Part shown: in pieces, positions 33,081-45,157 of the stretch
Layout of the letters: each line of letters opens with the position of its first letter
Numbering within the stretch: the first letter of the stretch is position 1
From: a virus
Lineage: Duplodnaviria > Caudoviricetes
Strand: one strand, 5' to 3'
DNA: 64,000 nt
Virus record (IMG/VR): IMGVR_UViG_2627853766_000003
Position numbers and translations under genes: made by a program
Notes under the pieces: model-generated
Databases searched by the model: none
The model's input: the letters and a program-made list of their open reading frames with translations, nothing else
Told to the model about the DNA's origin: nothing

Positions 33081-33419
33081 ATGCTGATGCCGGTTAAACA
33101 CGATCCGATCGACTGGTCCCGCGTAATTGCAGATTTAGTGCAACGCGGGTTCACAGTCGCGTCAATCGCTGCTAGCATCGCAGTTCCACCTACGACCGTG
33201 GGCGGCTGGCGCAACGCCGATGCCGAACCACACTACGACAGCGGGGAGCGCTTGGTGCTCCTGTGGTGCAATGCAACACGCCTGGAACGTAGCGAATTAC
33301 CCACAACGACTAAGCCTAGAAAACCCACAGGATTCCGTCGGACGACATGGATACAGTTGACCCTTATCGAAGGCAACGAAATGTATCCAAGTGACCAAAC
33401 CTGCAAATTCAACTGTTGA
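33081..33419 (+). CDS. HTH protein, possible late regulator
   Basis: IDWSRVIADL...G......IA....V...TV.GW.....EP....GE.L..LW. Confidence 0.65.
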   Translation: MLMPVKHDPIDWSRVIADLVQRGFTVASIAASIAVPPTTVGGWRNADAEPHYDSGERLVLLWCNATRLERSELPTTTKPRKPTGFRRTTWIQLTLIEGNEMYPSDQTCKFNC

Positions 33420-34020
33420 TTGGGAACGCATTGAGGCCGATTACCGGGCCGGTTTGCTTTCGCTTCGCGAGATTTCCTCAGCTAATCCTGGCGCGAACCA
33501 TGTAGCTATCGCGCGCCGTGCCAAAAAAGAAGGATGGATCCGCGACCTATCTGCCAAGATCAAAGCGCAGGCCGATAACCTTGTAACAAAGCAAGCTGTT
33601 ACAGAAGAGGTTACACAACAGCGCGCTGTTACAGATCGGCAGATCGTTGAGGTCAATGCCCAGGTCATTGCCAACATCCGTATTGCTCATCGCAAAGATA
33701 TTCAGCGCTTTCGCGCCTTGGCGATCTCGCTGCTGAGCGAGTTAGAAGCTGAGACCGGCAGCCTTGACCTATTCATCGAACTGGGTGAGCTGCTGCGCAA
33801 GGAAGACGACAAGGGGGTCGACAAGCGTAATGACCTCTACATGAAGGTCATCTCCAGCGCCAGCCGCGTGGACAGCGCCAAGAAGCTGGCCGAGACATTG
33901 AAGATACTGGTCGGGCTGGAGCGTGAAGCCTATGGCTTAGTCGACAGCCAGAGCAAAGAGATTGCCGCCGATAACCTGGCCAGCGTGCTGGAGCAGGCGC
34001 GCAAGAGGGTTTATCCATGA
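33391..34020 (+). CDS. Terminase small subunit
   Basis: DWERIEADYRAG.LSLREI...AI..RAKKEGW.RDL; coupled to the large subunit. Confidence 0.8.
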   Translation: MTKPANSTVDWERIEADYRAGLLSLREISSANPGANHVAIARRAKKEGWIRDLSAKIKAQADNLVTKQAVTEEVTQQRAVTDRQIVEVNAQVIANIRIAHRKDIQRFRALAISLLSELEAETGSLDLFIELGELLRKEDDKGVDKRNDLYMKVISSASRVDSAKKLAETLKILVGLEREAYGLVDSQSKEIAADNLASVLEQARKRVYP

Positions 34021-35561
34021 CCCCCGAACAACAACTTATTGAGGAAATGGCCCTGTGCAGCCTTGACCCGTTGCGCTTCGTGCTGTTCGCCTTCCCATGG
34101 GGATCTGGTGAGTTGGCTGATGAGCCGGGGCCGGACGAGTGGCAGATCAGCGTGCTGTGCGATATTCGCGATCGGCTGAAGTCTGGCGCTGCGACCACCA
34201 CCGAAGCCATCCAGATCGCTGTTGCATCCGGCCACGGTATCGGTAAATCCTGCCTGGTGGCCTGGGTTATTGAGTGGGCTATGTGCACCCACGAAGACAC
34301 CCGCGGCGTGGTCACGGCGAATACAGAAGCGCAACTAAAGTCCAAGACCTGGGCAGAGCTGGCCAAGTGGCACCGCCTGTGCATCTGTGCCCACTGGTTT
34401 GAGCTGACAGCCACAGCGTTGTTCAGCCGCCAGGAGCAGCATGAGAAGACTTGGCGCATTGACATGTCGCCATGGTCCGAGCGCAACACTGAGGCGTTCG
34501 CCGGCCTGCACAACAGCGGCAAGCGCGTGCTGATGGTGTTCGACGAGGGTTCAGCCATCCCAGACGTGATATGGGAAGTGGCTGAAGGTGCGCTGACGGA
34601 CGCCAACACGCAGATCATCTGGTGCGCCTTCGGCAATCCAACACGCAACAGCGGTCGCTTCCGTGAATGCTTTGGGCGGTTCAAGCACCGCTGGATCACG
34701 CGCCAGATCGACAGCCGCACCGCGCGTAAGGCCAACAAGGCCCAACTCGACCAATGGGTGAAAGACTATGGTGAAGATTCTGACTTTGTGCGTGTACGTG
34801 TGCGCGGGGTGTTCCCTCGCGCTGGCTCTACTCAATTCATTGGTTCGGACATCGTCCAGGCTGCGGCTAAACGTGAGGCCCATGCAGGTATCTACGATGC
34901 TCTTGTGCTTGGCGTTGATCCTGCTCGCTTTGGCGACGACGAATCGGTTATCTACATCCGCAAAGGGCGAGACGGTTCAACCCACGTGCCGCTCAAGTTC
35001 CGTGGTTTAGACACGATGCAGCTGGCCGCCCGCGTGGCCGAGCAATACGAGTTCTACCGCGCTGATGCCATCTTCGTCGACGAGGGTGGCCTGGGCGGCG
35101 GCGTGGTTGATCGCCTGCGCCAGATGCGCATTCCCTGCATCGGCGTGAACAATGGGTCAACACCCGATCGCAGCACACCAGGCCAAGAGCAGGTCGTCTA
35201 CAACAATAAGGCAGCCGAGATGTGGGGCGTCATGCGTGAATGGCTCAAGACTGGCGGCTCGATCCCACCGGATGATATTGATCTGCATGCCCAGTTGGAA
35301 GGCCGGGAATACGGCTATGTCATGCGCGACGGCCGGGACGCCATCATCCTCGAAAAGAAATCCGACATGAAGAAGCGCGGCCTGTCGTCGCCAGACATCG
35401 CTGACGCTCTCGCATTGACCTTTGCCTATCCAGTGCAACCCAATGCGAATGCAGGACGTGCAGCAGGGCATTTGACACCGACCGTGCAGCATGAGTACGA
35501 CCCCTTCAACTCTCAACCGCAGCGCGTGTCGAGAGAATATGACCCGATGAATGAAAGGTAA
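34017..35561 (+). CDS. Terminase large subunit
   Basis: ASGHGIGKS, VFDEGS, FGNPTR, GVDPAR.G.D, SPD.ADALALTF. Confidence 0.93.
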   Translation: MTPEQQLIEEMALCSLDPLRFVLFAFPWGSGELADEPGPDEWQISVLCDIRDRLKSGAATTTEAIQIAVASGHGIGKSCLVAWVIEWAMCTHEDTRGVVTANTEAQLKSKTWAELAKWHRLCICAHWFELTATALFSRQEQHEKTWRIDMSPWSERNTEAFAGLHNSGKRVLMVFDEGSAIPDVIWEVAEGALTDANTQIIWCAFGNPTRNSGRFRECFGRFKHRWITRQIDSRTARKANKAQLDQWVKDYGEDSDFVRVRVRGVFPRAGSTQFIGSDIVQAAAKREAHAGIYDALVLGVDPARFGDDESVIYIRKGRDGSTHVPLKFRGLDTMQLAARVAEQYEFYRADAIFVDEGGLGGGVVDRLRQMRIPCIGVNNGSTPDRSTPGQEQVVYNNKAAEMWGVMREWLKTGGSIPPDDIDLHAQLEGREYGYVMRDGRDAIILEKKSDMKKRGLSSPDIADALALTFAYPVQPNANAGRAAGHLTPTVQHEYDPFNSQPQRVSREYDPMNER

Positions 35562-35566
35562 CGATC

Positions 35567-35770
35567 ATGGGCGGCTCCGCACCAACACCACCATCAGTAA
35601 CCGTACCACCACCTATCCCGATGATGCAGTCGCCGACCGGCGCCGCAGCATCAGCAGCAGTCACGCAGCGCGCTAGCGCTGCAATTGGCCCGGCCGCAAC
35701 CATCATGACCGGCCCGGAAGGATTGACCCAGCCGGCCACCACCAGCAATAAAACCTTACTCGGGAGTTGA
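35567..35770 (+). CDS. Small virion-associated protein preceding the portal
   Basis: Pro-rich; TIMTG..G...KTLLG end typical of this position in podoviruses. Confidence 0.7.
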   Translation: MGGSAPTPPSVTVPPPIPMMQSPTGAAASAAVTQRASAAIGPAATIMTGPEGLTQPATTSNKTLLGS

Positions 35771-36186: not shown

Positions 36187-37920
36187 ATGACCACCATGGC
36201 CACATCAGCAGAACTGAAGCCGTCGCAGAAGGGCGCAGGCGATAATGTCACGCCCGATACTATGCGGCTGCGCGAGCATTGCGACCAGCTCTTGATCGGG
36301 CTACGCAATGACCGCATGAGCTGGTGGACCCATTGGCGCGAGATCGCCGACTATCTAATCCCGCGCCGGTACAAGTGGCTGATCACACCGAACCAGGGCA
36401 ACCGTGGCTCACCGATTAACCAGCGCATCATCGACAACACCGGAACGATCGCGCTGCGGGTGCTGCAGGCCGGCATGATGTCAGGTATCACATCACCTGG
36501 CCGGCCATGGTTCAAGATGGCCACCGACAACGATGAACTGAACGCGCTCGGTCCTGTAAAGCTGTGGCTGGACGAATGCCAGAAGCGCTTGGCGCGAGTC
36601 TTCGCCGAGTCAAATTTCTACACATCGCTGGCTACGATCTATGGCGACCTGGGTGCATTCGGCACTGGGGTGATGATCATCTATCAAGACTACGACGACA
36701 TCATCCGCTGTTTCAACACCTGCGCTGGCGAATACTTCCTGGCCAACGATGACCGCCAAGACGTCAGCACACTGGGCCGTGAGTTCGTCCTGACCGTCAA
36801 ACAGGTTGCTGAGCAGTTCGGCTTGGAGAATTGCAGCCAGACCATTAAGGGCGCGATCCAGACCGGCGGCGCCATGCTCACCCGCGAGGTCAAGGTAGGC
36901 CACCTGATCGAGCGTAACAGTGATCTGGTCCCTGGCGCCCCAGGCGTCAAGGGTATGGAGTGGCGCGAGATCTACTGGGAGATGGGCACCGGACAGAACC
37001 TGCTGTTGCGCGTTCGCGGCTTCCACGAAAAGCCATTCATCGCCCCTCGCTGGGATATCGTGGGCAACGATGCCTACGGCCGCAGTCCTGGCATGGACGC
37101 CCTGGGCGACATCAAGATGCTGCAGGTAGAGCAGAAGCGCAAGGCACAGGCGATCGACAAGCACGTCAACCCGCCGATGATTGCGGACATATCGCTTAAG
37201 AACGAGCCGGCCAGCATGCTCCCAGGCGGTGTGACCTATATCGCTGGAAACCTCAACGGCGTCGGCTTCAAACCAGCCTATGAGATCGCACCAGATTTCA
37301 GCGGCCTGTCGAACGACATCAAGGATGTGCAGGGCCGTATCAAGGTCACGTTCTTCAACGACCTGTTCATGATGATCAGCCAGCTGGACACCGTGCGCAC
37401 CGCAACTGAGATCGATGCTCGCAAGGAAGAAAAGCTGATCCAGCTCGGGCCGGTGCTGGAGCGTTTCGAGAACGAAGCACTGGACCCGGCCATCAACTGC
37501 GCATTCAACATCATGTTGCGCACCGGCCAGCTGCCGCCGATCCCGCAGGAGCTGTCTGGCATCCACATCAAGATAGAATACATCTCAATGCTGGCCGAGG
37601 CTCAGCGTGCTGCCAGTACTGCCGGCATCGAGCGGCTGGCCGGCTTCGTCGGCAACATCGCTGCAGTCAAGCCTGAGGTGCTGGATAACCTGGACTTCGA
37701 CGAGATCATCGACACCTACGCTGACATGCTGGGCGTAACACCCAAGGCCATCGTGCCTATCGTCAAGGTCATGCAGATCCGCGCCGCGCGCAGCCAGCAG
37801 ATGCAGCAGCAACAGGCACTGCAGAACAGCACAGCCGCCGCACAGGGCGCACAGACACTCAGCCAGACAGACACCGGCGGCGGTATCTCTGCGCTTCAGA
37901 AGATGTTGGGGAACGGGTGA
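36187..37920 (+). CDS. Portal (head-tail connector) protein
   Basis: W.EIADY..P, GMMSGITSP.RPWF, YGRSPGM.AL.D, TATEI..R.EEK...LGPVLER. Confidence 0.93.
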   Translation: MTTMATSAELKPSQKGAGDNVTPDTMRLREHCDQLLIGLRNDRMSWWTHWREIADYLIPRRYKWLITPNQGNRGSPINQRIIDNTGTIALRVLQAGMMSGITSPGRPWFKMATDNDELNALGPVKLWLDECQKRLARVFAESNFYTSLATIYGDLGAFGTGVMIIYQDYDDIIRCFNTCAGEYFLANDDRQDVSTLGREFVLTVKQVAEQFGLENCSQTIKGAIQTGGAMLTREVKVGHLIERNSDLVPGAPGVKGMEWREIYWEMGTGQNLLLRVRGFHEKPFIAPRWDIVGNDAYGRSPGMDALGDIKMLQVEQKRKAQAIDKHVNPPMIADISLKNEPASMLPGGVTYIAGNLNGVGFKPAYEIAPDFSGLSNDIKDVQGRIKVTFFNDLFMMISQLDTVRTATEIDARKEEKLIQLGPVLERFENEALDPAINCAFNIMLRTGQLPPIPQELSGIHIKIEYISMLAEAQRAASTAGIERLAGFVGNIAAVKPEVLDNLDFDEIIDTYADMLGVTPKAIVPIVKVMQIRAARSQQMQQQQALQNSTAAAQGAQTLSQTDTGGGISALQKMLGNG

Positions 37921-38288
37921 TGAGCGACAAGATATTCAACCTCAAGGATCTGGAGAAGATGCTACGGCCTGGTGCTGATCCTCTGGCGCGCAAGTTGTTC
38001 GAGCAGCGCATGGAAGAGGAAGCGGCTGAGGATGTGCGTGAAGCAGCAGCGGGCGGACTGAAGTTTGGTCCACCGCCTGTTCCTGACGCCCAGCTGGTCT
38101 ACAGCCCAGCCTCAAACAAAGTCGGGGTGGCCATCCGGGGCGCCCAGCGTATCTGTGAGCTGCCGAAGGAATACACCGGCACCGGCATGGAGCTGGCGCT
38201 GATCCCCGGCAATCGTTTGATCGTGACTCACCCGAACCACTCGCCACTGTTGATCGATCCACAGACCGGCACAACAAGGAAACTGTGA
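37917..38288 (+). CDS. Hypothetical phage protein
   Basis: Coupled to the portal gene. Confidence 0.6.
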   Translation: MMSDKIFNLKDLEKMLRPGADPLARKLFEQRMEEEAAEDVREAAAGGLKFGPPPVPDAQLVYSPASNKVGVAIRGAQRICELPKEYTGTGMELALIPGNRLIVTHPNHSPLLIDPQTGTTRKL

Positions 38289-38452
38289 TGCCTGAAATCA
38301 ATCCACAGATCATGCAGCAAGTGGCGCAAGGTCAGCAGCCAGGACCAGTGCAGCCACCGGTTGCAACGAAGCCAGTGAAGAAGGGCAAGAAGGGCGCTCA
38401 AGCCAATCCTGCCCAGACCGTTTATCCCAACCTACCTACACAGGGGCAATGA
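38288..38452 (+). CDS. 54-aa Gln/Pro/Lys-rich protein (not in the ORF track) with scaffold-like C-terminal motif
   Basis: MPEINPQIMQQVAQGQQPGPVQPPVATKPVKKGKKGAQANPAQTVYPNLPTQGQ; overlaps both neighbours. Confidence 0.7.
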   Translation: MPEINPQIMQQVAQGQQPGPVQPPVATKPVKKGKKGAQANPAQTVYPNLPTQGQ

Positions 38453-38796
38453 TGGCTACTACTGCACACAAAGCACCAGTCGGGCCAAACGGCCCTGTAT
38501 CTCCAGGAAGCACCGTCACGCCGCCGATGTCTGGCAACGCTGGCGCGCCGTCGCAGAAGCGCGACACGTCAGATCCATGGCTCGGCACCAAGGGTGGCAC
38601 GCCATCCAGTCCAGATGTGAGCAAGGGCAGCATGGGCGAAGTCAAGAAGACCGATGCTAAGGATAGCAAGGTGACCAAGGGCATTGCCGACAACAAGGGC
38701 GCGCCCAAGGAATCCGTGATCAGCAAGACAGCGCTGAAGCACAAGACGCCGGCGCAGAAGATGTATCCGTCGCTCAAGACGCAGGACGGGGACTGA
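38449..38796 (+). CDS. Basic low-complexity protein with scaffold-like C-terminal motif
   Basis: Lys/Pro/Gly/Ser-rich; ends KTPAQKMYPSLKTQDGD. Confidence 0.7.
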   Translation: MMATTAHKAPVGPNGPVSPGSTVTPPMSGNAGAPSQKRDTSDPWLGTKGGTPSSPDVSKGSMGEVKKTDAKDSKVTKGIADNKGAPKESVISKTALKHKTPAQKMYPSLKTQDGD

Positions 38797-38797
38797 T

Positions 38798-39046
38798 ATG
38801 GCCAAGCTCACCGCTGCCGATCGCAAGAAGATTCCCGCCAGTCAGTTTGGCGAACCCGGGAAGAAGAAGTATCCGATGCCTGACGCCAGCCACGCCGCGA
38901 ACGCAAAGAGCCGCGCCAGCCAGGCGGTCAACGCAGGCCGCATGTCTAAGGCCGAAGAAGAGAAGATCGACAGCAAGGCTGATGCCGTGCTGGGCAAGAA
39001 GAAGTCCGCAGCAAAAACGCTGTACCCAAACCTCAAAGGAGATTGA
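38798..39046 (+). CDS. DUF6582-like basic protein with scaffold-like C-terminal motif
   Basis: LT...RKKIP.SQFG.P..KKYPMPD.SHA.NA.SR; ends KSAAKTLYPNLKGD. Confidence 0.75.
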   Translation: MAKLTAADRKKIPASQFGEPGKKKYPMPDASHAANAKSRASQAVNAGRMSKAEEEKIDSKADAVLGKKKSAAKTLYPNLKGD

Positions 39047-39279
39047 CCGTGGAACAAACAGAAGCCCAAGCCATCAACGACGGGCACATCATCGAACGCT
39101 TGGAAAGCGGACTACCGGTCTATTTCAGCGTGAAGATCGGGCGCGACTTCGGTCAGCCCGCCGGCGGATGGACCGATGACCGGACCGTCGCCACGGTCTA
39201 CAAGGAATCTGACGCTCTCAATCTCTTATCGAATGGGCTTGCCAGCTTGGCACCGTTCTGCAAGGTGGTGGCCAAATGA
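39043..39279 (+). CDS. Hypothetical phage protein
   Basis: In operon, coupled. Confidence 0.55.
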   Translation: MTVEQTEAQAINDGHIIERLESGLPVYFSVKIGRDFGQPAGGWTDDRTVATVYKESDALNLLSNGLASLAPFCKVVAK

Positions 39280-39947
39280 AAAAAGTTTGCATAGCCGTCC
39301 CATCCGGCGACATGGTGCACGCTGACTTTGCTATGGCACTGGCAGCCGTGGCGTACATGTGCGGCCCACAGCATGGGACAGAAACAATTCCGCTGGCGAT
39401 CACCAACGCCAAGGGTTCGCTGGTTGTCAATAACCGTAACAGGATGGTGGCCGAGGCACAGAAGCTGGATGTCGACTACATATTCTTCGTAGATAGCGAT
39501 GTGGTGCTGCCGAATTGGGCACTGCACCGGCTGCTGGCTGCTGACAAGGATATCGTCGGCGGCACCTATGTGCAGCGCGAAGAGCCGCATTTGATCCTGG
39601 GCAAGACATTGGATGGCACTCTCATTCATGACTCGATGCAGGGAATGGAGATCAAGCCGAACGAGCTGATGGAAGTCGGTGCGCTGCCAGGTGGTTGCAT
39701 GCTGGTCAAGATGTCGGTGTTCGAGAAGATCGGGGCCGCAGAGTCGCCAATTTTCCAAACTCCAGCACGTCGTGAAGACGACGGTACTTGGTGGATTGAA
39801 GGCGAGGATTATTACTTCTGCCGCTGGGCTCGGCAAAGTGGTTATTCAATCTTCCTCGACTGGGGCTTGTCGGTGCACCTTAAACACGTCGGCCAGCAGC
39901 ACAACACCATCCCATTCAAGGAGGCACCAAATGCGCTCGTCAACTGA
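39276..39947 (+). CDS. GT-A fold (family 2-like) glycosyltransferase
   Basis: VCIAVP, NNRN, YIFFVDSD, GCMLVK..VFEKI, GEDYYFC. Confidence 0.85.
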   Translation: MKKVCIAVPSGDMVHADFAMALAAVAYMCGPQHGTETIPLAITNAKGSLVVNNRNRMVAEAQKLDVDYIFFVDSDVVLPNWALHRLLAADKDIVGGTYVQREEPHLILGKTLDGTLIHDSMQGMEIKPNELMEVGALPGGCMLVKMSVFEKIGAAESPIFQTPARREDDGTWWIEGEDYYFCRWARQSGYSIFLDWGLSVHLKHVGQQHNTIPFKEAPNALVN

Positions 39948-40254
39948 AGAAACTGCAGCAGACAACTATGACACTGGAGACCGTAAAGCCGTCGCCGATC
40001 GTGAGAAGCTGGCCAAGGTGCGCGAAGAGAAGCGCATCAACGGCCTGAAGCTGACCATGGCAACGAGCGACGGGCGGCGCTGGATGTGGGCTTTTCTGTC
40101 CAACTGTGGCCTGTTCTCTGTCGAATTCAACGGCAACAGCAAGGACTACTACAACCTCGGCCGCCGCGGCGCTGGCATGCCAGTCATGGCAGAGATCCAG
40201 AAGCACTGCATGGACGAATACATCTTGATGGCTCGGGAGAATGCAAATGTTTAA
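39931..40254 (+). CDS. Bbp19-like phage protein
   Basis: M.T.DGRRWMW.FL..CG.F...F......YN.GRR..G. Confidence 0.8.
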   Translation: MRSSTEETAADNYDTGDRKAVADREKLAKVREEKRINGLKLTMATSDGRRWMWAFLSNCGLFSVEFNGNSKDYYNLGRRGAGMPVMAEIQKHCMDEYILMARENANV

Positions 40255-41008
40255 TCTGTTCAAATTCAATCACCGCCTCCTGGAAGGCGACGACGGCAGC
40301 GGTGCAGCAGCCAGCGCAGCACCTGCTGGTACACCAGCTGCGCCTGCAGCTGCTCCGGCCGCATCGGCACCAGCAGCTGCTCCAGCTGCCGCAGCACCGG
40401 CTGATCCTGGCCTGACGCCACCAGCGAGCATGCTGGATGGTGTTCCAGCACCGGACGGCGCCAAGCCACTAGAAGGCGAAGCACCAAAGCCAGAAGGCGA
40501 AACCAAGCCGCTTGAACCTGTCGAGTACAAGGATTTCGCGCTGCCTGAGGGTATCCACGTACAGCCGGACCGCATGAATGCGTTCAAGGAAGAGGCCGCC
40601 AAGTCTGGCCTTTCCCAAGACGTAGCACAGAAGTTCGTCGACATGTACGCAGAAAATTTCAAGCAACTCAGCGAAGCGCCAATGCGCGCCTGGACTGAGC
40701 TGCAGAACAAGTGGCAGGCAGAAGTCAAGGCAGACCCCGAAATCGGTGGCGCGAACCTCGACAAGAACCTAGCCACGATCAAAAGCGGGTTGAGCAATCT
40801 TCTCGGTGAAGGTGCATCAAAGTTCTACGAGGCGCTTAACTTGACCGGCGCCGGCAACAATCCAGAAATTATCCGTGGACTCCTCAAGGCGGCAGCACCT
40901 CACGCACCCGCCAGTCCGGTAGAAGGTCGACCAGGCGGCAGCAGCAAGTCGGCAGGTTCGATCATGTACCCCACGATGGCAGGGCTGGGCAACGGGCACG
41001 AAACTTAA
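40241..41008 (+). CDS. Capsid scaffolding protein
   Basis: Ala/Pro-rich N-terminus, YKDF.LPEG, W...VKADPEIGG, G.GN.PEII; directly before the capsid gene. Confidence 0.85.
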   Translation: MQMFNLFKFNHRLLEGDDGSGAAASAAPAGTPAAPAAAPAASAPAAAPAAAAPADPGLTPPASMLDGVPAPDGAKPLEGEAPKPEGETKPLEPVEYKDFALPEGIHVQPDRMNAFKEEAAKSGLSQDVAQKFVDMYAENFKQLSEAPMRAWTELQNKWQAEVKADPEIGGANLDKNLATIKSGLSNLLGEGASKFYEALNLTGAGNNPEIIRGLLKAAAPHAPASPVEGRPGGSSKSAGSIMYPTMAGLGNGHET

Positions 41009-41107
41009 TCACTCTACGTTCTGACTCGCACGGCCCCACCTTTACACGGCCACCCGATGAAGACTCAAGACAAGGAGAACCACAAATGAACCACTAAGGA
41101 GCTTCAC

Positions 41108-42151
41108 ATGGCTATTCTCGGCGGCACCGCACTCACGTATGCGGACTGGGCGAAACGCGTAGACGACGATGGCAAGATCGCCACCATCATCAATCTGCTT
41201 TCCCAAACTAATGAAATCCTGGACGACATGCTTGTCGTAGAGGGTAATCTTCCAACCGGTCACAAGACCACCGTTCGTACTGGCTTGCCGTCTGCAACAT
41301 GGCGCCTGCTGAACTACGGTGTCATCAAGACCAAATCCACCACCGCACAGATCACCGACAACTGCGGCATGCTGGAATGCTACTCGGAAATCGATAAGGA
41401 TCTGGCTGACTTGAACGGTAACACCGCCGAGTTCCGCTTGTCCGAAGATATGGCTTTCCTCGAAGGCATGAACCAGCAGATGGCGCAAACACTGTTCTAC
41501 GGGAACACTCTGGTGAACCCCGAGCGCTTCATGGGACTGTCGGCACGCTTCAACACTTCCACCCTGGCCAATGCGCAAACAGCAGCCAACGTCATCAGCG
41601 CTGGCGGCGCCGCATCGACCAACACGTCGATCTGGATCACCTGCTGGGGTCCGAACACGGTGCACGGTATTTTCCCGAAAGGCAAAATCTCCGGACTTCA
41701 GCATCGTGACCTTGGCGAATGGCCGCTGACAGACTCGAACGGCAACATGTATCAGGGCTACCGGACTCACTTCAAGTGGGATATGGGCCTGACCGTTCGC
41801 GACTGGCGTTACGTGGTGCGCATCGCCAACATCGACGTGACACTCTTGTCTGGTGGCTCTGCTGCCAACTTGATTAACGCGCTGATCCGTGGTGTTCACC
41901 GTCTGCCGACTGCCCCTGTGCGTGTATCGACAGAGCAGAAATCCGACGCACCAGACGGCGGCATGATGCAGATGGGCCGTCTTGCCATCTACTGCAACCG
42001 CACCATTCGCACCTACCTCGACATCCAAGCTGTCAACAAGACCAACGTCCTGCTGCGCCTGGAAGAGTGGGAAGGCAAAGCCATCACCACGTTCCGGGGG
42101 ATTCCAGTTCGCACAGTCGATGCGATTCTGTCCACCGAATCGGCCATCTAA
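41108..42151 (+). CDS. Major capsid protein (BPP-1/epsilon15-like)
   Basis: LSQTNEILDDM...EGNLPTGHKTTVRTGLP..TWR.LNYG...FRGIPVR.VDAI..TE. Confidence 0.93.
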   Translation: MAILGGTALTYADWAKRVDDDGKIATIINLLSQTNEILDDMLVVEGNLPTGHKTTVRTGLPSATWRLLNYGVIKTKSTTAQITDNCGMLECYSEIDKDLADLNGNTAEFRLSEDMAFLEGMNQQMAQTLFYGNTLVNPERFMGLSARFNTSTLANAQTAANVISAGGAASTNTSIWITCWGPNTVHGIFPKGKISGLQHRDLGEWPLTDSNGNMYQGYRTHFKWDMGLTVRDWRYVVRIANIDVTLLSGGSAANLINALIRGVHRLPTAPVRVSTEQKSDAPDGGMMQMGRLAIYCNRTIRTYLDIQAVNKTNVLLRLEEWEGKAITTFRGIPVRTVDAILSTESAI

Positions 42152-42163
42152 AAGGAGATCGAC

Positions 42164-42643
42164 ATGCTTATCGATGCATTTTTGGTTTTTGACCAAGGCA
42201 CTTACAGCGCTACCACCGGCATGACCGGCGCTGCGCAGTTCGCCAGCGGCGCGACCACGACCAGCACCAACACGCTGGACATGATCAACGCTCGCGATAT
42301 GGGTGATGCGCCTTCTGGTCCTGGCGAGCTGTCCGTGAACTTTCAAATCACGGCGGCTTATGTGGGGGGCACTTCTGTCAACTTCCAGCTTCAGGGTTCC
42401 ACGGATAACACCACGTGGACAACCTACAGCGAAACCGGCGCGGTGCCGGTCGCCAGCCTGGGCGTAGGTGCGCTGCTTTCATTGCCGCTGCCACCGGTCA
42501 ATCCTGATGCCGGCGCCATTCCTCGCTACTACCGGACCGCGTATGTCAACGTCGGCGCCAACACGGCCGGCTCGGTGATCGCTTGGCTGGGTGCTCGCAC
42601 GTACAGCCAGTACTACAAGCCTGGCATCGTCGTCAATAACTAA
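42164..42643 (+). CDS. Bbp16-like capsid cement protein
   Basis: MLID..L.F...STN..D.....D.G...LQ.S.DN..W.T...RY.R..Y. Confidence 0.8.
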   Translation: MLIDAFLVFDQGTYSATTGMTGAAQFASGATTTSTNTLDMINARDMGDAPSGPGELSVNFQITAAYVGGTSVNFQLQGSTDNTTWTTYSETGAVPVASLGVGALLSLPLPPVNPDAGAIPRYYRTAYVNVGANTAGSVIAWLGARTYSQYYKPGIVVNN

Positions 42644-42648
42644 CCAAT

Positions 42649-42670
42649 AGGGCCGAGGAAACTCGGCCCT
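42649..42670 (+). terminator. GC-rich hairpin after the capsid/cement genes (weak terminator or stabiliser)
   Basis: AGGGCCGAG-GAAA-CTCGGCCCT, no long U tract. Confidence 0.5.
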
Positions 42671-42689
42671 TCACCGAAAGGTATTCATC

Positions 42690-42911
42690 ATGGCAACTGA
42701 AAACATTCAAGCAGCACCTGGCGCAGCCCGTTATGAACTGACGGAAGCCGCTTACATCGACGACAAGCTGCTGGTCGCCGGTCAACAAATCGAGTATGCC
42801 GGCATGCCAGGCTATCACATGGTTCCTTTGAACGACGCCGCCAAGGCCATGTTCAAGAAGCACGGCAAGGAATTTGTCGACCCGATCCTGGCTTTGACGG
42901 CAATCAACTAA
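42690..42911 (+). CDS. Hypothetical virion-region protein
   Basis: RBS; M.PLNDAAKA motif. Confidence 0.65.
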   Translation: MATENIQAAPGAARYELTEAAYIDDKLLVAGQQIEYAGMPGYHMVPLNDAAKAMFKKHGKEFVDPILALTAIN

Positions 42912-42921
42912 GGAGCCTGAC

Positions 42922-43281
42922 ATGGGCATTTTCGCAACTGGCGGAATAGAGCAGGCTGGCTATGTGCTGACAGGCGCGTTGTCGTCTGCCGTCGCTGGCG
43001 CGCAAGCGCCCTTGCTTGGCGACTTCAATATCGCTGTGTGGGGAACCTTCGTTGGCACGCTGACGCTGGAAAACTCCTATGACGCCGGCACAACCTGGAT
43101 CCCGGTGATCAACAAGCACACCGGCAACAACATCACCTGGACGACGCCCGGAGCGCTGCAAGAGGATGAGGTTGAAGCCGGCGTCTACTACCGCCTGCGC
43201 ATGACCGCATTCACAAGTGGCACTGCGAACTGGCGGATTTCGCAAGGAATGAATACTGGAGATCATCGGAGACTCACATGA
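42922..43281 (+). CDS. Putative virion decoration protein
   Basis: FNIAVWGTFVGT.TLE.S.D.G.TW...E.GVYYRL..T..TSG. Confidence 0.65.
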   Translation: MGIFATGGIEQAGYVLTGALSSAVAGAQAPLLGDFNIAVWGTFVGTLTLENSYDAGTTWIPVINKHTGNNITWTTPGALQEDEVEAGVYYRLRMTAFTSGTANWRISQGMNTGDHRRLT

Positions 43282-44063
43282 AAAAATTACTTCTGCTTCT
43301 GGCTGTTCTTGTTGCGTCTACGGCATTCGCCGGCGGCATCTACAACCCCATCAGCGCTACCGATACGATTCAAGTCAACCAGAACGGATATCTCGTCCCG
43401 GTTCCAGTAACTGTTGTTGGTGCATCTGCATCATCGCCAATTGCCGCTATTACGTCGGGGTCCATCAGTGGGTTGTCGCCGCCATTGCCAATTGCCAGCG
43501 GTGGGACTTCCAGCGCTACAGCAACCGGTACTGGCTCAGTTGTCCTGCAAACCTCTCCGACTCTGACCACTCCAGTTATTGGCGCTGCGACAGGCACATC
43601 CCTGTCGCTATCTGGGGTTCTTACGCCATCCACAACAGCCGGCATTGTTGGTACGACATTAGGCGATAGTGCCCAAGCAGGCAGTGTGGGCGAGGTGATT
43701 ACTAGCTCGATTGCAAGCGGGTCGGCGGTAGCACTCACCACTGGCACATCGGCAACCATAACTTCCATTTCGCTGACACCCGGCGACTGGGATGTAACCG
43801 GCTTGGTTGTGACTGGACCAGCTGGAACGACTACACAGACTAATACCGTTGGCGGCATCTCATCCGTGACGAATGCATTTTCTATGGCACAGAGCACTGT
43901 ATATTTGCCATTTGCTGCATCGGCTGGTAATAGCATCGGTATGTCGGTGACGACTAGGATAAATATTTCTTCAACAGCGACCTATTACTTGGTGGTGCAA
44001 TCCACATTCGCCGTGTCTACCAACGGTGGCTACGGCACTATCTTTGCTCGCCGTCGGCGCTAG
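43278..44063 (+). CDS. Ser/Thr-rich fibre-like protein with N-terminal signal-peptide-like sequence
   Basis: MKKLLLLLAVLVASTAFA; LPIASGGT, TGTGSVVL.TSPTL.TP.IGAATG, GTT..D.A.AG.VGE. Confidence 0.7.
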   Translation: MKKLLLLLAVLVASTAFAGGIYNPISATDTIQVNQNGYLVPVPVTVVGASASSPIAAITSGSISGLSPPLPIASGGTSSATATGTGSVVLQTSPTLTTPVIGAATGTSLSLSGVLTPSTTAGIVGTTLGDSAQAGSVGEVITSSIASGSAVALTTGTSATITSISLTPGDWDVTGLVVTGPAGTTTQTNTVGGISSVTNAFSMAQSTVYLPFAASAGNSIGMSVTTRINISSTATYYLVVQSTFAVSTNGGYGTIFARRRR

Positions 44064-44072
44064 GAGACGGTC

Positions 44073-44417
44073 ATGAAGATAGTCGACATGGCACGTAAAG
44101 ACGATGGCCAGGATGCAATGGTATCTGAACCATCACCATACCCTTGTGGGTTACGCATCAGCCTGAACAAGGAAGATCTGGGAAAACTCGGCATCGACGA
44201 GCTGCCAGACCTGGGTACTCAGGTTGCCTTCTACGTTTGCGGTGAGGTCGTCAGCACCAGCGAGTCTAGTGAGTATGGTGATTCGCAATGTCTTGGCGTT
44301 CAGATCCAATGCATGGCGCAGGAGGAACTTCCTGCAGACGAGGAAGAGGAAGCCCAGGACGCGATCAAGGGTGGTTTCAAGGAAGCAGCCAGCAAACTCT
44401 ACAGTAAGCAGAAATAG
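44073..44417 (+). CDS. Acidic head-associated ('staple'-like) protein
   Basis: YP.GL.ISL..E.L.KLGI..LP..G; ends EAASKLYSKQK. Confidence 0.7.
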   Translation: MKIVDMARKDDGQDAMVSEPSPYPCGLRISLNKEDLGKLGIDELPDLGTQVAFYVCGEVVSTSESSEYGDSQCLGVQIQCMAQEELPADEEEEAQDAIKGGFKEAASKLYSKQK

Positions 44418-44419
44418 CC

Positions 44420-45157
44420 ATGGCCAGCCAAATCGACATCTGCAACATGGCCATGTCTGTCATCGGCACGCGGTCGAGCATTGCCAGCATGACCGAGGGC
44501 AGCGCTGAGTCTAACCAGATCAGCCTGCAATACCCGACGGCCATTGATGCTGTGCTGCGCGCCGCTCATTGGAATTTCGCGCGCAAGCAGATTGCAATGA
44601 CGCTCTTGCAGGATGGAACGCAAGGGCAGCCGGTTCCTTCGCCCTGGCTCTATGAATACGCTGTGCCGAGCGACTGCGTGCTGGCGCGTTTCGTAATGCC
44701 GACGATTCAGGCAGCTGTACCTAGTTCTACCCCTGGTATTCCATCGCAGGTTACCGCGATGAACCAACCTGTCCGATTCGTGCTAAGTACCGATCTTGAC
44801 CCGACCGGCAATCCGATCAACGTAATCCTCACCAATCAGCCGCAGGCCACGCTGGTCTATACCTTCCGCAACCTGAACCCAGCAATGTACGATGCGCGGT
44901 TTGTCGAGGCGCTGGCAGCATTCCTTGGCGCCAAGATCTGCATTCCGCTGACTGGCGACAAAGCCATGATGAAGATGGCTCTTGCAATGGCTCAGCAGTA
45001 CACCATGGATGCACAGGCATCCAACGGTAATGAAGGCCTCACCGTAATCGATCATGCGCCTGACTGGATACGCGTACGTGGCTATGCATCTGATTACGCC
45101 TATCCAGATGGAGGCCTGTTTATCTACGGCCCCCAAGCTTTGACATTGCTCTCCTGA
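44420..45157 (+). CDS. Tail adaptor (tubular protein A-like)
   Basis: DICN.A...IG...I.S..E.S...HWNFA...W.Y.Y..P.DC. Confidence 0.85.
   Translation: MASQIDICNMAMSVIGTRSSIASMTEGSAESNQISLQYPTAIDAVLRAAHWNFARKQIAMTLLQDGTQGQPVPSPWLYEYAVPSDCVLARFVMPTIQAAVPSSTPGIPSQVTAMNQPVRFVLSTDLDPTGNPINVILTNQPQATLVYTFRNLNPAMYDARFVEALAAFLGAKICIPLTGDKAMMKMALAMAQQYTMDAQASNGNEGLTVIDHAPDWIRVRGYASDYAYPDGGLFIYGPQALTLLS

Follow-up and report, generated by a model that had tools for sequence, protein, structure and literature searches.

We analysed a 64,000-nucleotide stretch of viral DNA, IMG/VR virus record IMGVR_UViG_2627853766_000003 (the whole stretch is called the window hereafter), and found that five plus-strand open reading frames (ORFs) in its phage head module carry the same short peptide, or tag, close to the C-terminus, roughly small-x-x-hydrophobic-Tyr-(Pro/Gly). 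The five carriers are the scaffold protein, three consecutive basic small proteins encoded between portal and scaffold, and a homolog of epsilon15 gp10. The tag is shared, conserved and specific to particular protein families, and it co-varies with the scaffold tail. Judging from the sequences, it probably acts as an address label that brings the four small head-gene proteins to the assembling capsid. By sequence and by analogy with better known phages, we cautiously favor the view that the tag is a partner-binding peptide of the scaffold type, with the coat protein as its most likely docking site, and that it was copied onto the other proteins to recruit them into the procapsid.

A C-terminal tag on five head-module proteins

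The five peptides had been pointed out by a sequence-only reading of the window, and all of them exist as described, each near the C-terminus of a plus-strand ORF. The 55-amino-acid (aa) protein (38288-38452) has ANPAQTVYPNL, with the tag PAQTVYPNL encoded at 38408-38434; the 115-aa protein (38449-38796) has KTPAQKMYPSL (PAQKMYPSL, 38749-38775); the 82-aa protein (38798-39046) has KSAAKTLYPNL (AAKTLYPNL, 39008-39034); the scaffold (40241-41008) has KSAGSIMYPTM (AGSIMYPTM, 40952-40978); and the 114-aa gp10 homolog (44073-44417) has KEAASKLYSK, where the tag AASKLY is encoded at 44385-44402 and preceded by an acidic linker. The positions kept are a small residue (A or G) at -4, a hydrophobic residue at -1, Tyr at 0, and then Pro or Gly. 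In the six-frame translation of the window, the pattern [PA][AG]..[LMV]YP.[LM] occurs four times, always 3-9 residues before a stop, and the shorter [LMV]YP.[LM] occurs six times, four of them in tagged genes; these counts are descriptive and circular, because the patterns were built from the same sites, and the independent tests are those of conservation in relatives.

Any pair of tags shares just 1-3 identical codons at its 2-6 identical residues, and the differing codons exclude a recent DNA duplication, so the earlier suggestion of a selected peptide rather than a recent DNA copy is borne out. The carriers are otherwise unrelated, as had been proposed, since their bodies form separate BLAST clusters once the tails are removed. 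The three small carriers are indeed consecutive and basic, with isoelectric points (pI) of 10.0, 9.7, and 9.9, whereas acidic values of 4.9 and 4.3 were obtained for the scaffold and the 114-aa protein, respectively. A Shine-Dalgarno-like purine-rich stretch is present at all five starts except the GTG alternative, and several carrier starts overlap with the stop of the gene before them, a feature of coupled phage genes; for the 55-aa protein, the ATG at 38288 is likelier than the alternative start at 38285. The 55-aa protein is basic and of low complexity, and the 115-aa protein is predicted to be disordered (mean predicted local distance difference test score, pLDDT, of 0.24 in its Atlas model). 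Neither has a Pfam or PHROG match, and a Protein Atlas look-up for the 115-aa protein gave weak leads only. The 82-aa protein matches phrog_16160 (E 5e-23), with DUF6582 at 22.4 bits, below the cut-off of 27.3.

The scaffold sequence alone, used as a query, retrieved no related loci and gave one weak match among 60 related genomes. Relatives were therefore gathered with a profile of scaffold homologs, which yielded 80 viral contigs and 30 genome contigs, the latter including Ralstonia condita, a Herbaspirillum sp., a Paraburkholderia metagenome-assembled genome (MAG), and many Syntrophobacteraceae MAGs. In the window's clade, 23 loci have both portal and scaffold, and their intervening ORFs were clustered with the last 14 residues removed. 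Across these loci the tag is all-or-none by family, for carrier and neighboring families alike. It is present in 20/20 ORFs of the 55-aa family (20 of the 23 loci), in 9/9 of the DUF6582 (82-aa) family (nine loci), and in 3/3 of the 115-aa family (three loci: the window, L005, and L083), which upholds the claim that scaffold and carriers have a tag in common that homologs conserve. The tag is found in none of the 29 Bbp19-like ORFs, the 23 ORFs of the 78-aa family and the 23 glycosyltransferase-like ORFs (all three families in 23/23 loci), and in none of the 17 ORFs of the 123-aa family (17 loci). A further family (RKQAIAIAL...), found in three loci, has the tag in 3/4 ORFs. In an alignment of 17 members of the 55-aa family, the sole invariant columns, A43, Y47, and P48, are the tag itself.

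The same trend is seen over all distinct loci when all ORFs are counted and the minus strand serves as control. The pattern [LMIVF]YP falls within the last 20 residues of 76/3878 non-scaffold plus-strand ORFs, compared with 25/4646 minus-strand ORFs and an internal expectation of ~0.3%. Among the 42 distinct loci with enough flanking sequence, 32 have at least one small tagged plus-strand ORF (63 ORFs in total), while the loose pattern appears on the control strand in 13 loci (13 ORFs). Over the loci examined, the tag is attached to bodies of at least seven unrelated families. The phrog_16160 domain of the 82-aa protein also occurs in a Komagataeibacter phage with a tail sheath, in the N4-like Klebsiella phage MY01, and in Tunturiibacter phages. 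The homologs in phiKX1, Tunturi_2, and MY01 are 66-69 aa long and stop where the tag of the window begins, and those of MY01 and Tunturi_2 lie outside head modules. Because the domain is tail-less in unrelated phages, the tag is a modular addition to it.

Some resembling peptides were set aside. The loose pattern [LMIVF]Y[PG] is matched in the cement protein (ALYPPGF) and in the tail adaptor (FIYGPQ), which were judged from context to be folded parts. The terminase small subunit (33391-34020) ends in KRVYP, and a 112-aa plus-strand ORF (33081-33419) has NEMYPSD near its end; both are probably chance matches, with no small residue at -4 and no tagged homolog.

The scaffold tail and its counterparts in other phages

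In the AlphaFold2 (AF2) model, the 255-aa scaffold begins with an N-terminal helix and a disordered linker rich in Ala and Pro, continues with a helical core (residues 109-221) and a disordered tether, and has a four-residue helix (239-242) immediately before Y243-P244, all at low confidence (mean pLDDT 63.8). The PHROG label "protease" on the matching phrog_458 is an inherited one; the protein here is a helical scaffold. A profile search of the PDB with the scaffold returned only chance coiled-coil and low-complexity matches, and no solved procapsid of the epsilon15/BPP-1 group was among the PDB sequence matches. The 255-aa form is backed by a ribosome-binding site at 40241 and by the conserved homolog N-termini M-F-x-R-L-x-x-R-W-x-L-L-E-G-E; the protein collection holds the window's own scaffold (P0001) as a 192-aa form starting at Met64.

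In this large protein collection, we found 104 scaffold homologs. The last 40 residues of the close relatives contain a strongly kept K-[ST]-A-G-x-T-L-Y-P-x-M-x-G-L-G-N-G-H-E-G, and more distant relatives retain A-x-x-[LMI]-Y-[PG]. Within the last 20 residues of distinct homologous scaffolds, [LMIVF]YP is present in 79/95 and [LMIVF]Y in 92/95. The scaffold tag of the window is followed by AGLGNGHET, which is absent from the accessory proteins; likewise, the near-invariant x-G-L-G-N-G-H-E-G ending (40979-41005 in the window) is kept in close scaffold relatives and found in no accessory protein.

The 114-aa protein is a member of PF21628 (Gp10-like) by the curated threshold (E 1.4e-7; 32.1 bits, cut-off 27) and matches PDB 3J40_N (E 2.6e-6). 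With a hidden Markov model (HMM) of the body only, gp10-like proteins were detected in 27 of 122 loci and phage records, and every one of them is tagged. The large collection contains 769 homologs at E <= 0.001; in the best 120 of these, a hydrophobic-Tyr pair lies within the last 14 aa in 101, compared with 107 of 1521 internal 14-mers, and 12 of the 19 exceptions have a hydrophobic-Tyr motif such as KLYG slightly further in, followed by an extra extension. In an alignment of 18 gp10-like sequences, A106 and Y110 do not vary. The motif of the 114-aa protein had been regarded as a weaker version of the others, a description we correct here, as it is the homologous, conserved and normal tag of its family. 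In the 101 tagged homologs, the residue after Tyr is G in 57, P in 17, K in 8, A in 7, S in 6, R in 3, N in 2, and D in 1, and the distance from Tyr to the C-terminus ranges from 1 to 11 residues. For the 114-aa protein, the AF2 model (pLDDT 72.7) shows a beta-hairpin and C-terminal helices covering the tag, the tag region being of low confidence; Foldseek found no neighbor of this model in the PDB at E <= 0.001.

The resemblance between scaffold and accessory tails extends to well-known phages. In epsilon15, the scaffold gp6 ends in ...ISAFYPKK and gp10 in ...KDAFYPDGEDD (SAFYPKK versus DAFYPDG). The phiV10 scaffold ends in ...SAAEVLYGK and its gp10-like protein in ...SAAETLYGNGGE (SAAEVLYGK versus SAAETLYGN). 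For BPP-1, the tails are ...ARRLYAASNMNP in the scaffold Bbp18 and ...AQRLYGASSMSA in Bbp20 (ARRLYAASNM versus AQRLYGASSM), and for BcepC6B they are ...RAAKLYDKS in the scaffold gp07 and ...RAAKFYANTPTT in gp06 (RAAKLYDKS versus RAAKFYANT). Xanthomonas phage CP2 has ...NRMYPDM in the scaffold and ...ARMYADDPSMKD in the gp10-like protein (NRMYPDM versus ARMYADD), and Caulobacter phage Jess A has ...AKSLYPNSNHN and ...AAKLYKDTD, respectively. In the Syntrophobacteraceae-associated lineage, the scaffold ends in ...LLAKMYPTM, and small proteins encoded directly upstream of the tail adaptor gene end in ...LASRMYPSM and similar peptides.

We scored such pairs with BLOSUM62 on tails anchored at the Tyr, from -7 to +4, with the Tyr itself excluded. 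For 12 lineage representatives, the own pairs sum to 174, compared with 73 +/- 24 for shuffled pairs, and 1 of 200,000 shuffles reached 174. When the hydrophobic residue was also excluded, 6 of 200,000 shuffles did so, and dropping any one representative gave 0-9 of 50,000 shuffles. The suggestion that the tag co-varies with the scaffold tail thus stands across the 12 lineages but is weak within the window's own lineage. A tag that tracks the scaffold tail of its lineage is expected if all carriers use the binding site of the scaffold.

These small tagged ORFs of the Syntrophobacteraceae-associated loci (L097, L107, L039, and others; 76-106 aa, ...KMYPSM...) thus lie at the position that gp10 occupies in epsilon15. 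The gp10-like HMM did not detect them as homologs, and they are either very diverged gp10 homologs or non-homologous replacements.

Possible roles of the tag

In the reading we favor, the scaffold would bind its partner, most probably the inner face or the N-arm of the coat protein, through the peptide (A/G or L)-x-x-hydrophobic-Tyr-(Pro/Gly), which sits on a flexible tether and ends 1-11 residues short of the C-terminus. The same element would have been appended to the 55-aa and 115-aa disordered basic proteins, to the DUF6582-domain protein, and to the gp10-like protein, so that the tagged proteins would dock where the scaffold does and be taken into the procapsid as it assembles. With a spacing of i, i+3, i+4, the kept residues would share one helix face, with Pro or Gly ending the helix, and the tag may accordingly be a short amphipathic helix with a Pro/Gly cap, a "helix and hook" as in 80alpha. 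The AF2 models are consistent with this at low confidence, with a helix before the Tyr-Pro in the scaffold and over the tag in the gp10-like protein. The presumed docking partner in the window is the coat protein at 41108-42151; coat is the likeliest partner because of the 80alpha analogy and the co-variation.

Related arrangements are known from several capsids. In P22, the C-terminus of the scaffold is the coat-binding element. In lambda (C/Nu3) and herpesviruses (UL26/UL26.5), nested protease and scaffold genes have a common C-terminus, and the HK97 protease has a C-terminal capsid-targeting part. As in these systems, several proteins here would reach the procapsid interior through a common C-terminal coat-binding end; however, the common end there comes from in-frame nested genes or belongs to a protease, whereas here a short peptide is carried by non-homologous proteins from separate genes, and the Pfam and PHROG scan recognised no prohead protease family among ten head-module proteins. 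The T4 internal proteins are small and basic, with an N-terminal capsid targeting sequence that is removed by the prohead protease. The proteins described here would resemble them in having a terminal address peptide for an HK97-fold shell, and three of the carriers are small and basic as well, but the tag is C-terminal, seemingly copied from the scaffold, and presumably uncleaved. Encapsulins use terminal cargo-loading peptides and work without scaffold or portal, whereas portal, terminase, scaffold, and tail genes are all present here.

The closest precedent is the RIIK tail common to the 80alpha scaffold and the SaPI1 protein CpmB. According to the available passages of that study, the last 16-21 residues of the 80alpha scaffold (gp46) and CpmB share a RIIK "helix-and-hook", and the two tails bind the same coat N-arm site and are interchangeable (PMC5644958). 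As in this pair, the motif here is C-terminal and common to the scaffold and otherwise unrelated proteins, is conserved in homologs, and follows the scaffold tail, although weakly in the window's lineage. CpmB, however, is a satellite protein that hijacks the site to change capsid size, whereas the three to four carriers here are encoded by the phage within its head module, between portal and scaffold or beside the tail adaptor gene. The motif also differs from RIIK, being small-x-x-hydrophobic-Tyr-Pro/Gly, and coat binding is suggested here by analogy. That proteins can be directed to the capsid interior by a terminal peptide they have in common is already known from 80alpha/CpmB and the other systems above; what is new is a different motif, which is used on several of the phage's own unrelated proteins and also occurs in epsilon15 and BPP-1, and the bearing of this motif on the "capsid staple" family. 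In keeping with the sequence-only reading, our literature search, mostly without subscription journals and supplements, found no description of such a system for BPP-1/epsilon15-like phages. The shared tail is unmentioned in the available parts of the A1002, phiRIO-1, and 2025 epsilon15 papers, and a search of the literature on Bbp20, 8CJZ, DUF6582, and Uetakevirus proteomics found nothing useful.

Several observations weigh against recruitment into the procapsid by a copied scaffold tail. The scaffold of the window's lineage has the invariant GLGNGHEG extension, which the accessory proteins are without, and the gp10-like tail of this lineage is not notably close to its own scaffold (the own scaffold ranks 7th and 10th of 11). 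The 12 representatives for the permutation were picked by hand. Ten of the 42 well-covered loci have no tagged accessory ORF, and the loose pattern is seen in 13 of the 42 in the control as well. No tagged partner was found among the annotated genes of Ab31, Vibrio 1.185.O, HU1, Nostoc Nsp-JY18, and Acinetobacter 4316, and the sharing is therefore widespread but not universal. If a scaffold-type contact is all that holds them, small disordered proteins might exit together with the scaffold instead of becoming cargo. The virion analysis of BPP-1, in the portion available to us, covered only two major bands and is not informative for Bbp20 (PMC3863775).

Among the alternatives, the one that survives best, though we consider it unlikely, is that the tagged proteins use the same site in another role, competing with the scaffold or modulating it, for instance through the timing of assembly, scaffold release, or, like CpmB, capsid size, and are transient assembly factors rather than cargo. 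The sole worked precedent, 80alpha scaffold and CpmB, is indeed a case of competition and not of cargo (available text of PMC5644958), and a tag without the scaffold's GLGNGHEG extension could occupy the site without doing the scaffold's job. Against this, epsilon15 gp10 has been reported in infectious virions (PMC9207676, as far as its passages go), the carriers are encoded by the phage rather than by a satellite, and three to four carriers per genome, mostly disordered and basic, are hard to square with size control.

Somewhat less likely again is that the tag binds a common partner other than coat, namely the portal, the Bbp19-like protein, or a host chaperone or protease, in the last case as a degron-like clearing signal. 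Co-occurrence does not discriminate between portal, Bbp19-like protein, and coat, all of which are universally present, and the gene of the Bbp19-like protein immediately precedes each scaffold gene; moreover, removal of the scaffold would need another route, given that no prohead protease was recognised and that the BPP-1 capsid proteins are uncleaved (PMC3863775, in its available portion). However, a distance of 1 to 11 residues between Tyr and the C-terminus is ill-suited to recognition of a free C-terminus, and lineage-specific co-variation from Enterobacteria to Syntrophobacteraceae favors a co-evolving phage partner over a conserved host factor. In P22, the scaffold C-terminus binds coat, which speaks for coat here as well. 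The same element binds coat in 80alpha, according to the passages available (PMC5644958).

The tag could also be what the glycosyltransferase-like enzyme of this gene block (39276-39947) recognises. The presence of its gene between portal and scaffold in 23/23 clade loci and the invariant Tyr of the motif speak for this, but we regard it as highly improbable, because the tag is shared in epsilon15, phiV10, BPP-1, BcepC6B, and CP2, whose annotation tables show no comparable gene there (the family itself was not searched for), and because the enzyme assignment is weak, with Pfam matches below cut-off. Chance similarity, or a functionless relic of gene-end recombination, is very unlikely given the conservation data: the motif is short and loose patterns do match controls (25/4646 minus-strand ORF tails; 13/42 loci), but in the 23 clade loci the tag marks all members of the carrier families and none of the neighboring ones, it is the most conserved part of the 55-aa and gp10-like proteins, gp10-like tails are enriched for it over internal 14-mers, codons differ between copies, and the co-variation with the scaffold tail is significant.

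A wider extension of procapsid recruitment by scaffold-type tails is possible, but we put it forward only tentatively, from sequence and analogy. In phages of the epsilon15/BPP-1 type, the tag could be a modular capsid address label, such that any small protein with a scaffold tail of ~12 residues would be loaded into the procapsid. The "capsid staple" family (epsilon15 gp10, BPP-1 Bbp20) would then be an internal virion protein loaded by its tag, and the basic disordered carriers would be cargo that stays with the DNA, enters the host, and acts in DNA condensation or counter-defence, like the T4 internal proteins.

This bears on how the gp10-like family is named. According to the available passages of a 2022 re-analysis, proteomics of infectious epsilon15 virions had identified gp10, to which the outer "staple" density was then attributed, but this density better fits a 130-aa protein, and the original assignment is probably wrong (PMC9207676). 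The detection of gp10 in virions is the one experimental hint, an indirect one, that tagged carriers are packaged. In the annotation NC_004775.2, gp8 is the only head-module protein of 130 aa, and its note points to similarity with Bbp16, the cement protein of BPP-1. Presumably, epsilon15 gp8 is the 130-aa protein in question; the link is drawn here, as gp8 is unnamed in the passages of PMC9207676. A 2025 paper, in the part available, still names gp10 a staple (PMC12391199), which weighs against over-reading the reassignment. The NCBI name for members of PF21628 is "capsid staple protein" (P0183, P0190), and Pfam has "Major coat protein-like"; both labels rest on the epsilon15 density assignment that is questioned in the available text of PMC9207676. 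Because the density fits a 130-aa protein and the window encodes its own Bbp16-type cement protein, the gp10-like proteins would not be the staple, and the cement protein (42164-42643) is likely the true outer decoration. The gp10-like proteins would instead be virion proteins of unplaced location, which fits an interior, non-icosahedral position, and their conserved scaffold-like tail points to binders of the scaffold's site rather than staples.

If the tag is the docking peptide of the scaffold, it locates the scaffold-coat contact in a large group of phages that includes two structural model phages, and it gives the widespread gp10-like family, with its 769 homologs and a public name on doubtful grounds, a new role that can be tested. 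Reuse of the scaffold tail as a portable signal for loading several unrelated proteins would then not be confined to satellites but extend to the phages themselves, and how small internal proteins of podophages enter the head would become directly testable. A short natural tag for loading foreign proteins into capsids of the epsilon15/BPP-1 type would be at hand; BPP-1 is of interest as a display system (available part of PMC3863775).

The head module and its other genes

The tagged genes belong to a prophage region at ~30-58 kb, with 55-60% G+C compared with roughly 50% in the flanks. By sequence, their host is the head module of an epsilon15/BPP-1-type short-tailed prophage, as follows from the coat protein (41108-42151; epsilon15 gp7/BPP-1 Bbp17 type; PF20911 (GP7) E 2e-138), which matches the solved coats of BPP-1 (3J4U_A, E 5.8e-106) and epsilon15 (3J40_A, E 7.5e-93). 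All hallmarks of such a module are present, namely a GP7-type coat, a Bbp16-type cement protein, a T7-type portal, a Bbp19-like protein, and a scaffold upstream of the coat gene. PF20911, PF21190, and PF12236 score above their own cut-offs; PF25181 is below, yet phrog_528 matches at E 6.1e-19.

All genes of the module are on the plus strand. The small (33391-34020) and large (34017-35561) terminase subunits, assigned by position only, are followed by a 67-aa epsilon15 gp3-like protein (35567-35770) and the portal (36187-37920; PF12236 E 3e-161), which forms the upstream boundary of the tagged-gene block. After a 123-aa protein (37917-38288) come the three tagged small proteins, a 78-aa protein (39043-39279), a 223-aa glycosyltransferase-like protein (39276-39947; phrog_1574 E 3.4e-23), and the Bbp19-like protein (phrog_528), which ends at 40254. 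The scaffold (phrog_458 E 2.6e-38) lies directly upstream of the coat gene, and the jelly-roll cement protein (PF21190 E 5.2e-12) follows. Three small ORFs (42690-44063) separate the latter from the gp10-like gene, behind which are the tail adaptor (44420-45157) and further tail genes.

One ORF of the head-tail module (43278-44063) encodes 261 aa, with an N-terminus that resembles a signal peptide, MKKLLLLLAVLVASTAFAGG, and a body rich in Gly, Ser, Thr, and Ala; the product, for which Pfam gave no match, may be a moron or a surface protein. The glycosyltransferase-like gene has no comparable gene at its position in the annotation tables of epsilon15 and BPP-1 (the enzyme family itself was not searched for), and its product may modify virion proteins.

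The 67-aa gp3-like protein ends in ...NKTLLGS, and K-[TS]-L-L-G-[QGS] is also the extreme C-terminus in epsilon15 gp3, phiV10 p06, BPP-1 Bbp22, HU1, Ab31, Vibrio 1.185.O, and Acinetobacter 4316. Looser endings of the LLG or LG type are found in BcepC6B gp04, Jess A, and Nostoc Nsp-JY18, and some gp10-like homologs have a ...LLGG or ...TLLVDL extension after their KLYG tag. By its sequence, this ending may be another conserved C-terminal tag of the head module.

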